The notes under the pieces are model-generated. The model saw only the letters and a program-made list of their open reading frames with translations. It made no database searches and had not been told where the DNA came from. The translations under genes were made by a program, and so were the position numbers. A stretch of DNA of 64,000 nt from assembly GCA_000092065.1 (NCBI GenBank), contig CP000581.1, one strand, 5' to 3'. How positions within the stretch are numbered: position 1 is the first letter of the stretch; each line of letters opens with the position of its first letter. The stretch comes from Ostreococcus lucimarinus. Its lineage: Eukaryota. Below, piece after piece: positions 52,074-58,226 of this stretch.

Positions 52074-53611
52074 TTACAACGACGGCTCGGGTTCACGATC
52101 CATTCGTGGTACAGGCACGGGACGATTCGTCGCGGACATCGTTTTCACCGATTGCACCGCGAGCTTGAGCATGGGCTCGACGGCGCGCTTGATCGCGGGC
52201 GTGGCGAGTATGGCGCGAGCGACGTCGCGCGTGGACGACGCGCCGACGGCGGGCGACTCCGCGCCGGGAGTTCCGAGTCCTTGACGGATCGATTCCTTGG
52301 CGCGTGCGTAAGATTTGCACGCCATCGGCGCCTCATCGACGATCTCGGCGTCGTCGTCGATGATTTTCGTCAACAGATCTTGCGCCAAGGCGTCCAGCTT
52401 CGTCTGAGCCTCGTCGATGGATTGTTTGGGAACTTCCTTCGGGAACAACGCGGCGGCGTATTTCCCGACCGCGTCCGTCACGGCCGCGCGCAAGGTAGCG
52501 TGGTAAAGAGCTATTTCCTTTGTCGCCTCTGCGCTCGGCGTCGGGCTCGGTTCTGGTTTCGCCGTGGCGACGGCTGCCGGAGGCAATTTCGGTTTTGGTC
52601 GTACCTCCACCGTCTCCATCGCCGAGCTCAAATCGCGCGTCGCCGCTTCGCGTCGCGACGCTTTCGACTGCGTCTTGATCGGTTTCCCCACGAACGCGTC
52701 CGCAGGCGGGGTCGTGTCCACGAATACGGACAGTAACATTTTGAGTAATCTGTAACCGTCGATGCGAATCACCGCCTTGGTCGCGTCCGCGCCGTCGACG
52801 TCGCTCCGCGTCGCCCAACTCGCCGTCGCATCTGCGCTGAACGCATCTTCAATCATCGCACACACAGTAGCGTATAAAAACGACGCGTCTCGCCTCTCCC
52901 CTTCGCTCGTGACGCCATAGAAAATCGAACGCACCACCGTCGTCGCTTGTTTGGCGTCCAACGACACGTCGCACGCGTGCACGCCCGCGTCGATGTGATT
53001 CGCGCGCCCTTTCTCCGCTCTCGCGCGTCCTAAATCGTCCGTTCGCATCACCCGCTCCCCTCGTCTCGCCATCAACGCGCACTCGTACTTCAACCACCTT
53101 CGACAATACAAAAAAAAGAGCAGCGCCTCGTCGTCGTACGCCCGCCGCACGAACGCGCAAAACAACTCCGCGCACTCACTCGTCTTGCTCTTCCTCGCCG
53201 CCTCCGCGTTGCACATCACTTCCCACGCGTGTTTTTCCACGAGCGATTTCACCCCTAACGTCCGCGCCCAGCGTCCGTACGCGAAATCCCCAAACGTCGT
53301 CGTCGTCTCGTCCTCCTCGTTCGCGTTCGCGTTCGCGTCCCTCCTTCCCGCCGCCCCCCCGTCCTCGCGCGTCGTCCCTCGCCGCGCCCGCGCGTCGTTC
53401 TCGTATTTCGCGTCGTACACGCGCTCGCACTCGCGCTCGAGCCACTCGATCGGGCGCTCGCGCGCGTCCCGCGCGTGTCCGTCGTCGAGGCGCTCGACGA
53501 ACGTCGTCGCGTACCGCGCGCGCATCGCCGCGCGCAGCGCCAGCGGCGGCGGCGGCGGCGTCACCGCCGCGCGCGGCGACCATTTTTCCGCGCGCGCGCT
53601 TCCCGCCAGCG

Positions 53612-53643
<32 letters not shown>

Positions 53644-53779
53644 CGCATCGTTCGTCGTCGCGCGTTTGAATGTCGCCGCGCGGCACTGCGCGGCGCGCGG
53701 AACGCGTCGAGGGATGCGCGCGACGCGCGCGATGGCGCGCGCGACGAGCGCGCGAGCGGCACCGCGCGGCGCGGGACGG

Positions 53780-53817
<38 letters not shown>

Positions 53818-53831
53818 GACGATAACGACAT
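52074..53831 (-). CDS. Hypothetical protein. Start ambiguous: ATG 53831 (poly-Thr leader) or ATG 53648 ([10 protein letters not shown]).
   Basis: Long ORF with moderate-GC coding-like body ([54 protein letters not shown]...). No family recognised. Confidence 0.45.
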
Positions 53832-54646
53832 CGGCGCGGTGGACGGGACGCGCGCGGGCCGTCGCGCGCGCGGTCCCGCGAGACGCGCTCGCGGGACGAT
53901 CGTTCGAGAGCGAACTCGCGCCGCTGCGCGCGGCGGGGATCGAGGTCCATCGGCTGGGCGCGCGCGCGCTGTCGCAGGGAGACTGCGCGCCCGAGGTGTG
54001 CGCGCTGCAGGCGATGCTGGCGAGCGAGCGACTGCTGGCGCTGCCGAACGGAGGATTGCCCACGGGATTCTTCGGCCCGAGCACGACGGAGGCGGTGAAG
54101 AAGTGGCAAAAAGTGCGAGGGATCGAACCGACGGGGGTGTTCGGGGACGCCTCGCGCGAGGCGTACCTGGCGCAGAAGAAGACGGCGCTCTTCGCGAGCG
54201 TCTTCGGGCCGCAACCGCCCTCGCGAGCGTGGCTCACCGCGGAAAAGTTTGGGAAACCGATCGCGCGCGCTGCGCGCACTGGAACGTGGACGAAGGAGGC
54301 GTATTTATCCGCCAACGACGTCTTCGCGGCGTCGTTCCTGTCGGGAGTGCTGTTTACGGTGGCGATTTTGTTTCAACACAAGGCGCGGAATCGATGGAAG
54401 GAGCTCGAGGCGGAGAATCGACGGGCCGGCGTCGCGCGCACGCGCGGCGAGCTCGTCTCGGCGATCGTGCGCGAGTGTTTGGACGACGCGTCTTCGTACT
54501 TTCGTGGGATTTTCGATCGCGCGCGCGGGAAACTCGCCACCGGCGCGGCGCTCCGAGCGCGCTCGCCGACGCCGGCGCGACGTCGATTCTTCCTCGGTGG
54601 GTTCGCGCTGCGTCTCGGGAATTGGCGCGTCGGTTCTTGGGATTAG
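53714..54646 (+). CDS. Peptidoglycan-binding (PG_binding_1) domain protein with a Ser/Arg/Ala-rich transit-peptide-like leader and one TM helix.
   Basis: GDCAPEVCALQAMLASERLLALPNGGLPTGFFGPSTTEAVKKWQKVRGIEPTGVFGDASREAYL matches the PG_binding_1 consensus. TM VFAASFLSGVLFTVAILF. First ATG at 53714; the ORF-track start is TTG. Confidence 0.7.
53785..53814. repeat. Trinucleotide repeat (GTC)10, with a second (CGT)8 run at about 53618..53643, in the head-to-head region of the 52074 and 53714 genes.
   Basis: Read directly. Encodes poly-Ser on the plus strand and poly-Asp/Thr on the minus strand. Confidence 0.9.
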
Positions 54647-56503: not shown

Positions 56504-56572
56504 CGCTATAGTGACTTAGATGAATATTTGATAGAAGAATCATAGATATGCCTCGCTCGCTCGCTTGATCGA

Positions 56573-57361
56573 TCACATCCCAAGCGCCTCCAACAACACC
56601 GGCGAGGCGAAATCGTCGACGCACATGCAGCATCCGACGCGCGCCAACGTCTCCTCGCTTTGGGACGATAGGATCCCGACCGTCGGAATATTCGCCGCTA
56701 CCGCCGCCCGCGCGCCCGCCGGAGAGTCTTCAAACGCCACGCACGCCTCGGGCGCGTCGCTCACGCCACACCGCCGTAACCCTTCGAGATACGGATCTGG
56801 ATTTGGTTTCGACCGCGCGCACTCCGTCCCGATGACGAGTCGTTCGTCCCCAAAGTACTCCCTCAGCCCCAACTGCGTGAGCATCGCCTCCGCGTTCGCC
56901 CTCGGCGCATTCGTCACGACTACAGTCTTCACGCCGCGCGCATCGCACGCGTCCAACAGCGCTCGCAACCCTTTCGCCGGCTGCAACGCTTCTCGCGCCA
57001 ACGCTTCGCGAAAGCTCGCCTCTTTCGCCTCCGCCATCGCTTCGTGCTCCTCGGCGCTTTTATCCGGATACAGCCTCGCGAATATATCCGCGTTCGACCC
57101 TCCCGCGATGTTTTCTTTGAAGTATTCGTGCGTCAGCGGCGCCCGCAGCACGCCCGTGCGTCGCAAGAGTTCATCAAACACGACAAAGTGCATCGGGTCG
57201 CTGTCCGCCATCGTACCGTCTAAATCGAACAGCGCCGCGCGCAATCGCGGCGCGGGGCGTATCACCGGCGCGCTCCGCGTCGTCGGCGCCGCGCGCGCGT
57301 CGTCCGCCTCGCGCATCGCCGTCGTCCGAATCGAAACGCGCGCCGTCAGAAGGCGTCGCAT
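56573..57361 (-). CDS. HAD-like hydrolase, beta-phosphoglucomutase / sugar-phosphatase subfamily.
   Basis: ALFDLDGTMADSDP (motif I), VVTNAPRANAEA, SKPNPDPYLEGL, FEDSPAGARAAVAANIPTVGI. ATG at 57361; an alternative start is MREADD at 57316. Confidence 0.8.
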   Translation of the reverse strand: MRRLLTARVSIRTTAMREADDARAAPTTRSAPVIRPAPRLRAALFDLDGTMADSDPMHFVVFDELLRRTGVLRAPLTHEYFKENIAGGSNADIFARLYPDKSAEEHEAMAEAKEASFREALAREALQPAKGLRALLDACDARGVKTVVVTNAPRANAEAMLTQLGLREYFGDERLVIGTECARSKPNPDPYLEGLRRCGVSDAPEACVAFEDSPAGARAAVAANIPTVGILSSQSEETLARVGCCMCVDDFASPVLLEALGM

Positions 57362-57362
57362 A

Positions 57363-58226
57363 ATGCCGCCGCCGCGAAACGTTCGCCGGAAGAGAGCGTG
57401 CGATTCGGACGGCGACGACGCGCGCGACGACGACGCGCGCGACGACGACGACGACGACGCGCGCGACGACGACGGCGGCGCCCTGCGCGCGCTGCGCGAG
57501 GCGCGCGAGCGACAGCAGCGCCGGAATCGAGCGAAAGGTTTGGACGTCGGGACGCTCATCACGGGACGACGCGAGCGCGCGGTGGGAAAACGCGCGGACG
57601 ACGGCGGTGACGGTGCCGCAGACGCGCGCGCGCGCGATGGAGGTCTCGGCGTCGCGCACGGAGAGACGCGGATGCTGGGGACGAATTCGGCGTTCGCGAG
57701 CGCGGGGGTGGTGCTCGCGGGACGGGAATTGGTTCGGGACGGGGACGACGGCGATCGAGGATACGGCTTGCGAACGGCGGAAGAGGCGCGAGCGAGGGCG
57801 TACGTAGAGGAAGAGCTGAAACGACGGCGCGGGGAGGTGGTCGAGGACGACGCCGAGGCGAGCGGGGCGGCGGCCGCGGGGGGCGACGATAATCGAGGCG
57901 CAGAGTCTTGGCTCACGGCGATCGAAGAGGTCGACGTCTCGGTCGAACGAAGGATGCAAAACATAGAGGAGACGGAGCGGGCGAAGCGGGCGATGTTAGA
58001 CGGCGCGCGTCCGGGCGAACTCGGTGCGTTCGATGCGCTAAAACCGAGTCACATGGAATTGAAGGAGGCGAAGAAGCGACCGCCGCCGAGCGAAACCGCC
58101 CTCGCGCGGCGTCAATTCGTCACTGGATTCGGCGCTAAGCGTGAGCGTCAAGAGGCGAGCGAGGAGTCGAGGCGCGAGAAGGAGCGCAGGAAGAATTTCT
58201 TCAAGAAGAAGCGAAATAAGAGATGA
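57363..58226 (+). CDS. Hypothetical highly charged (Asp/Arg/Glu/Lys-rich) protein, possibly a nuclear C9orf78/HCA59-like factor.
   Basis: ATG at 57363. The 3' part is coding-like: ...WLTAIEEVDVSVERRMQNIEETERAKRAMLDGARPGELGAFDALKPSHMELKEAKKRPPPSETALARRQFVTGFGAKRERQEASEE...KNFFKKKRNKR. The family assignment is a weak guess. The real start may be downstream. Confidence 0.35.
   Translation: MPPPRNVRRKRACDSDGDDARDDDARDDDDDDARDDDGGALRALREARERQQRRNRAKGLDVGTLITGRRERAVGKRADDGGDGAADARARDGGLGVAHGETRMLGTNSAFASAGVVLAGRELVRDGDDGDRGYGLRTAEEARARAYVEEELKRRRGEVVEDDAEASGAAAAGGDDNRGAESWLTAIEEVDVSVERRMQNIEETERAKRAMLDGARPGELGAFDALKPSHMELKEAKKRPPPSETALARRQFVTGFGAKRERQEASEESRREKERRKNFFKKKRNKR

Follow-up and report, generated by a model that had tools for sequence, protein, structure and literature searches.

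The locus described here lies in a 64,000-nucleotide stretch of contig CP000581.1 of Ostreococcus lucimarinus (the window), and it raises the question of what a peptidoglycan (PG)-binding domain of bacterial type does in a predicted membrane protein of this green alga. The occurrence of PG in green plastids outside mosses and glaucophytes is debated, and targeted gene knock-out is feasible in Ostreococcus tauri, which makes the question testable. A first-pass annotation, made from the sequence alone, had read the locus as a PG-binding membrane protein with a plastid-type presequence and had linked it to a near-complete PG synthesis pathway retained by some Mamiellophyceae. A conserved, membrane-anchored PG-binding fold in algae that keep only DDL and MurE would represent either a clean case of re-use or a handle on cryptic PG.

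Gene model and start codon

On the evidence of the sequence, the locus is a real nuclear gene of O. lucimarinus, encoding an extended form of the protein deposited as XP_001415693.1 (UniRef A4RS75). The interval from 53666 to 54646, given as the gene in the first-pass annotation, is a mechanical open reading frame (ORF) that is merely opened by a TTG at 53666, and the real start is the ATG at 53714. The complete and intron-free coding sequence thus runs from 53714 to 54646 on the plus strand and encodes 310 aa followed by a TAG stop, with in-frame ATG codons at 53714, 53732, 53816, and 54014. In the DNA alignment with the contig of a close relative (L004), the start codon of the corresponding protein (P0002) falls at most about 6 nt from 53714, and the indels located 3' of this position (36 and 6 nt) preserve the frame, whereas those located 5' of it are non-multiples of 3; the aligned start codon and the in-frame indels support the translation of the leader. 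Furthermore, GC3 reaches 0.82 in the frame of the gene versus 0.62 to 0.65 in the two other frames, and the 310-aa product is 99% identical over its full length to a metagenomic protein (P0001). No intron is required, since all orthologues align collinearly with the ORF.

The C-terminal 210 aa of the product are identical to P0032, which corresponds to the public 210-aa entry XP_001415693.1/A4RS75 of O. lucimarinus CCE9901, labeled either as a predicted protein or as a "Peptidoglycan binding-like domain-containing protein." This public model begins at Met117 (54014), omitting the leader and the pre-domain helix, and is N-terminally truncated, since its first residue falls within helix 1 of the PG_binding_1 domain. 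A practical yield of the analysis is therefore a corrected gene model for a RefSeq/UniProt entry that stands without the leader and the first domain helix.

Relatives and conserved gene order

Relatives were sought with a word index and, exhaustively, with HMMER among 1.84 billion cluster representatives, which yielded few full-length sequences, falling in three Ostreococcus-type clusters. A lineage with 60% GC is represented by P0055 on contig L005, where the gene-caller model is truncated and the full ORF presents a 71-aa leader rich in S, T, and R together with the same C-terminal motif as the window protein. An AT-richer, Bathycoccus-like lineage (44% GC; P0090 and P0099) keeps the module and the transmembrane (TM) helix, with an acidic tail and no C-terminal motif. 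A third search, seeded with the more distant matches, led to a sister subfamily in the Trebouxiophyceae (Nannochloris desiccata, Chlorella variabilis, and Trebouxia).

The gene order consisting of a divergent gene of unknown function, the PG_binding gene, Lipase_3, HAD, Hep_59, and photolyase recurs in contigs L001 to L004, L005, and L008, and in part in L007; this conservation across contigs of the Mamiellales type supports the orthology of the PG_binding gene. Two metagenomic proteins (P0009 and P0010) match the gene in patches only and are otherwise translated from other, Arg-rich frames of this locus; both result from frameshifts in the gene calling of metagenome assemblies and are no real variants.

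The alignments delineate a chlorophyte family plan, into which the window protein fits, comprising a leader, a pre-domain segment (LR..G..V...G.R.L), the PG_binding_1 domain, a helix with the R.AYL signature, and one TM helix. All members are annotated as "hypothetical" or by the domain alone. No homologue, prasinoviral or other, occurred in the viral contigs searched, a literature search on the gene identifiers returned nothing, and one on plastid proteins with PG-binding domains returned pTAC5 alone. The domain class and the automatic annotation of the protein by its domain were already known; what is new is the full-length architecture, hidden so far by the truncated reference model, the chlorophyte-wide family with an extended module and a TM helix, the C-terminal hairpin motif specific to Mamiellales, and the persistence of the family without a PG pathway.

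The PG_binding_1 module

In the conserved N-module (aa 62 to 155; 53897 to 54178, plus strand), a pre-domain helix (RSFESELAPLRAAGIEVH) comes first, then the three-helix bundle of PG_binding_1, and finally one more helix (REAYLAQKK...). The Pfam profile HMM PG_binding_1 (PF01471) matches it with 40.1 bits against a gathering threshold of 23 (E = 4.1e-10), and precomputed annotation places PF01471 on all orthologues. Moreover, the family profile matches the PG-binding domain of phage phiKZ gp144 among PDB sequences, and the N-module is confidently modeled as the three-helix bundle of a bacterial PG-binding domain, with matches to known structures. The module named by the first-pass annotation is thus accepted by both profile and fold searches. 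The motif proposed for it holds with one correction: where "DG.FG" had been written, the actual letters are TGFFG. Among 800 bacterial domains, the Asp position of this motif is occupied by T in 38% and by D in 20%, so that TGFFG is a common natural variant. The replacement of Asp with Thr in two "DG" motifs was also considered as a sign of lost PG binding and was rejected, since the same 800 domains have T no less often than D.

The algal domain holds nearly all the consensus positions of bona fide bacterial domains, and its family-specific substitutions are the replacement of F with W in the "FQ" motif and the loss of G-Y after helix 1. The NCBIfam search returned only a sub-threshold SleB match across the domain. 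As for an arrangement of the matrixin (MMP) type, neither a Peptidase_M10 catalytic domain nor a cysteine switch was found after the PG_binding_1 domain.

The N-module is under purifying selection: compared with a more distant Ostreococcus-type orthologue (L001), dN is 0.126 and dS is 1.28, with a ratio of about 0.1. In the same comparison, dN/dS is about 0.7 in the leader and about 0.7 in the C-terminal tail, and it follows that the PG_binding_1 module is the constrained, functional part of the protein. In the comparison with the closer relative L004, codons 156 to 221 (54179 to 54376) are 100% identical in DNA, and 15 of the 94 residues of the N-module differ, with dN about equal to dS (0.10 and 0.11); this pattern suggests a mosaic metagenome assembly or a recent recombination.

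Leader and probable organelle targeting

The segment of 61 aa upstream of the first conserved residue (53714 to 53896, plus strand) is presumed, from its composition and its variability among orthologues, to be a cleavable organellar presequence. It contains 16 A, 12 R, 12 S, 6 T, and one acidic residue (A 26%, R 20%, S+T 30%, D+E 2%) and no hydrophobic core of the signal-peptide type. An S/R/A-rich leader does precede the PG_binding_1 module in the frame indicated by the first reading. The leaders of the orthologues, 20 to 86 aa long and non-conserved, are likewise rich in S, T, R, and A, with 15 to 41% Ser plus Thr and long poly-S/T runs, and all precede a conserved R-S/T-F-E-S-E. Part of this composition is written in repetitive DNA: the poly-Ser run is encoded by a (TCG)10 microsatellite (53784 to 53815, plus strand; period 3, 10.7 copies, and 100% matches according to TRF), and the remaining leader is encoded by CG-rich low-complexity DNA, because of which composition alone is weak evidence. 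Members of the 90%-identity cluster span 305 to 312 aa, and we would suggest that the length of the (TCG)10 repeat varies in natural populations.

With an extension that lies outside the conserved part, is rich in S, T, A, and R, and is poor in D and E, the N terminus behaves like an organellar presequence; it would direct the protein to an organelle, most probably the plastid, and be cleaved there. Algal transit peptides resemble mitochondrial presequences, and a mitochondrial inner-membrane protein carrying the PG_binding-like module in the matrix is an alternative that we consider rather unlikely. The N terminus is indeed rich in Arg and Ala, with Arg residues spaced with roughly helical periodicity, and mitochondrial inner-membrane proteins commonly combine a presequence with one stop-transfer TM helix downstream of it. 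However, the Ser plus Thr content and the poly-S/T runs of the orthologue leaders are more typical of plastid transit peptides, and the Trebouxiophyte leaders are short and end in VKS or VRS, in the manner of chlorophyte transit peptides. Also against the mitochondrial assignment, the family was found only in green algae in these searches, and the only other organellar PG_binding_1-domain protein that we know of, pTAC5 of Arabidopsis, is plastidial.

Membrane segment, tail, and topology

Downstream of the module, a linker of 46 aa (156 to 201; 54179 to 54316, plus strand) presents a conserved S/G-P-x-P-P...W motif in the alignments and low pLDDT in the model. It leads to the single predicted TM helix, DVFAASFLSGVLFTVAILFQ (aa 202 to 221; 54317 to 54376, plus strand), recognized from its hydrophobicity and conservation. 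The corresponding hydrophobic segment, DVFAASFLSGVLFTVAILF, has a Kyte-Doolittle mean of 2.05 over 19 aa and is the only one of its kind in the protein; all orthologues, as well as the Trebouxiophyte subfamily, have an equivalent segment. The placement of one TM helix on the C-terminal side of the module, as first proposed, is borne out by these observations.

The tail that follows (aa 222 to 294; 54377 to 54595, plus strand) is basic, poorly conserved, and predicted to be helical, with low AF2 confidence. It ends in a conserved motif, GGFALRLGNWRVGSWD (54596 to 54643, plus strand), predicted to form a beta-hairpin, with strands 238 to 240 and 243 to 245 in the AF2 model. Its residues F, A, R, G, R, G, and W do not vary among the Ostreococcus-type orthologues, and the protein of the 60%-GC lineage carries it as GGFAIRVGRFRLGTW; neither the Bathycoccus-like nor the Trebouxiophyte members have the motif. 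Beyond the domain, the quality of the initial full-length AF2 model was poor, and pLDDT fell below 50 in the linker and the C terminus. The mature part contains three Cys residues and no CxxC.

Counted over 15 aa on each side of the TM helix, K and R residues number 4 in the C-flank versus 2 in the N-flank, which weakly favors the trans side for the domain and the stroma or matrix for the tail; in the Bathycoccus-like members, this bias is reversed relative to Ostreococcus. With a cleavable N-terminal presequence and no second export signal, the N-terminal domain would by default end up in the stroma or matrix.

Reduced peptidoglycan pathway and possible role of the protein

Van Baren et al. 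(2016, PMC4815162) report that the three sequenced Ostreococcus genomes and Bathycoccus retain only DDL and MURE and that chlorophytes hold just a few genes of the PG pathway; according to their study, MurA to MurD, MurF, MraY, MurG, and PBP are missing from Ostreococcus, and it is in Micromonas pusilla, CCMP2099, and further classes of prasinophytes that a complete or near-complete pathway occurs. A scan of the roughly 30 longest ORFs of the window (250 aa or more) revealed no gene of the PG pathway. The suggested check for Mur and PBP genes thus gave a negative answer among these ORFs and, from the same published survey, DDL and MURE only for the three sequenced Ostreococcus (PMC4815162), and the near-complete pathway with which the first-pass annotation had justified a dedicated PG-binding protein does not apply to Ostreococcus and Bathycoccus.

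Since only DDL and MurE are kept, a dedicated binder of a sacculus is unlikely. Purifying selection has kept the family in Ostreococcus and Bathycoccus, from which MurA to MurD, MurF, MraY, MurG, and PBP are missing, and the family also occurs in Trebouxiophytes, which we assume to be devoid of a full pathway; this too argues against a sacculus-binding role. With the pathway reduced to this extent, the domain most likely survives from the envelope toolkit of cyanobacteria and has acquired another ligand.

We lean, with modest confidence, toward an organelle-targeted single-pass membrane adaptor with a relic PG-binding fold and a ligand other than PG. The presequence of about 61 aa would deliver the precursor to an organelle of endosymbiotic origin, with the plastid as the most probable destination, and the single TM helix would hold the mature protein in a membrane of that organelle. 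On one side of this membrane would lie the module of about 95 aa built around the bacterial-type PG_binding_1 three-helix bundle, and on the opposite side the basic helical tail ending in the conserved beta-hairpin motif. The PG_binding_1 module could then act as an adaptor surface, most probably for a protein partner and less likely for a small D-amino-acid or muropeptide-like ligand; we infer both a ligand different from the PG wall and the membrane topology. The other option of the first-pass annotation, a role in protein-protein interaction as in land-plant homologues, is the one that fits better, even though the architecture of the protein is unlike that of pTAC5. Two considerations temper the adaptor hypothesis: the absence of pathway genes is no proof of the absence of the polymer (compare PMC9954125), and, with nearly all consensus positions kept, the domain bears no apparent sign of lost PG binding.

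These considerations leave some room for a genuine PG binder, anchored in the inner envelope and exposed to the plastid intermembrane space, where it would contact a cryptic layer of PG or PG-like material; we judge this improbable. The bacterial-type fold with intact consensus positions, the strong purifying selection on the N-module, and the retention of DDL and MurE in Ostreococcus (PMC4815162) are in its favor, as is, weakly, the basic C-flank of the TM helix, which would place the domain on the trans (intermembrane-space) side. In addition, PG-like labeling has been reported around the chloroplasts of Arabidopsis and Nicotiana despite a reduced set of four genes (Tran et al. 2023, PMC9954125). 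However, with MurA to MurD, MurF, MraY, MurG, and PBP missing, Ostreococcus retains fewer steps than Arabidopsis and no synthesis of lipid I/II; with no second export signal after the presequence, the N-terminal domain would, by what we infer from general import pathways, lie in the stroma or matrix; and the family occurs in both Ostreococcus-type and Bathycoccus-like lineages, neither of which has the pathway. If the protein did bind PG, Ostreococcus and Trebouxiophytes would still build or hold PG-like material from the DDL/MurE remnant, the family would be its membrane anchor, and the protein would be the first from any green plastid to be dedicated to PG binding. That such a true envelope binder of PG, or of a PG remnant, has been kept across chlorophytes thought to have lost plastid PG is something to which we assign a still smaller chance.

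Far less credible is a cell-surface or secreted protein through which a wall-less alga would sense or bind bacterial PG in the phycosphere. PG_binding_1 domains are mostly extracytoplasmic in bacteria, and, given the K/R bias, the TM helix could be a signal anchor with the domain outside; against this, the leader has no hydrophobic signal-peptide core and is instead basic, hydroxylated, hypervariable, and transit-peptide-like, and the translocation of an N-terminal segment of 200 aa without a signal peptide would be unusual. Finally, a chance frame with a spurious domain match, conceivable in a region where, at 64 to 67% GC, long mechanical ORFs abound on either strand, was ruled out for practical purposes by the Pfam score far over the cutoff, the GC3 of 0.82 in this frame only, the syntenic orthologues ranging from 99% to about 30% identity, the dN/dS of about 0.1 in the N-module, and the confident domain model with specific structural matches.

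Comparison with known PG-binding proteins

The fold class of the window protein is the one found in PF01471 domains of bacterial and phage wall enzymes, such as the N-terminal domain of SleB (6TCI), phiKZ gp144 (3BKH), and the Zn DD-peptidase (1LBU). Different from these enzymes, it presents a single copy of the domain and no catalytic domain, its gene is nuclear, the domain is preceded by an organellar-type leader and followed by a TM helix, and its host is reportedly devoid of PG synthesis (PMC4815162).

In Arabidopsis, pTAC5 (AT4G13670) is a plastid nucleoid protein that combines a PG-binding domain with a more C-terminal C4-type DnaJ zinc finger endowed with disulfide isomerase activity, and it partners with HSP21 (PMC4080259). 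Like pTAC5, the window protein is nuclear encoded and probably plastidial, belongs to the green lineage, and carries a PG-binding-type domain in what is probably a non-PG context. Unlike pTAC5, it has neither CxxC nor a zinc-finger Pfam match, and it presents instead a TM helix and the C-terminal hairpin motif; because the C4 zinc finger is missing and a TM helix is present, it is not of the pTAC5 type.

A further term of comparison is PPASP, which has an N-terminal TM helix and a C-terminal LysM domain, occurs only in streptophytes with a complete or nearly complete pathway, was not found in prasinophytes, and was proposed to be associated with plastid PG (PMC4815162). Both are small single-pass membrane proteins with one putative PG-binding domain, but the window protein has PG_binding_1 and no LysM match, its TM helix is C-terminal to the domain, and its hosts are without the pathway.

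The Trebouxiophyte proteins compared (CHLNCDRAFT_58231 of C. variabilis, Ndes2526B_g06168 of N. desiccata, and WJX82_004355 of Trebouxia), all uncharacterized, share with the window protein a short transit-peptide-like leader, the N-module (LR..G..V.EFG.R.L ... TGYFG..T.EALQAWQ ... AYL), and one TM helix. They differ in their length of 500 to 650 aa, in a long disordered tail with the motifs LRRLSDEELQRYIAP and GTYYGGRQV, and in the absence of the GFALRxGNWRxGxW end.

Neighboring genes and a second PG_binding-like protein

A second PG_binding-like protein may exist in Ostreococcus. In a deep O. tauri proteome, the quantified product of ostta01g02940 ("Peptidoglycan binding-like," 307 aa) is diel rhythmic in light:dark cycles (p = 5e-5) and not in constant light (Kay et al. 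2021, PMC8484446). This gene (chromosome 1, 467934 to 468857) adjoins a helicase gene, and the window gene has its syntenic orthologue at another place, beside a Lipase_3 gene. Its use as expression evidence for the window gene was dropped on account of the helicase neighbor and of a position unlike that of the syntenic orthologue.

The other large ORFs of the window correspond to ordinary eukaryotic genes, encoding Nup85, Nup84/107, SMC, RCC1/F-box, AICARFT/IMPCHase, and WD40 proteins, as well as an enoyl-coenzyme A hydratase, a class-3 lipase, HAD, Hep_59, and a photolyase. Upstream of the PG_binding gene, a divergent gene of 483 aa (52074 to 53525, minus strand) has no Pfam or NCBIfam match and a conserved start, MRARYATTF. 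The mechanical ORF on this strand runs from 52074 to 53831 through poly-Asp and poly-Thr stretches encoded by (GTC)n, and conservation begins only at Met103 (MRARYATTF..., 53525); it follows that about 190 nt lie between the two divergent genes, which are free of any overlap. The same head-to-head arrangement, with genes about 190 nt apart, occurs in L001, L004, and L008.

Further downstream, two long mechanical ORFs, 56565 to 58226 on the plus strand and 56573 to 57964 on the minus strand, overlap, and each encodes a different domain, Hep_59 in one case and a HAD hydrolase in the other. In the relatives, HAD (about 235 to 293 aa) and Hep_59 (about 254 to 324 aa) are adjacent, non-overlapping genes, and the overlap in the window is therefore an artefact of GC-rich open frames.
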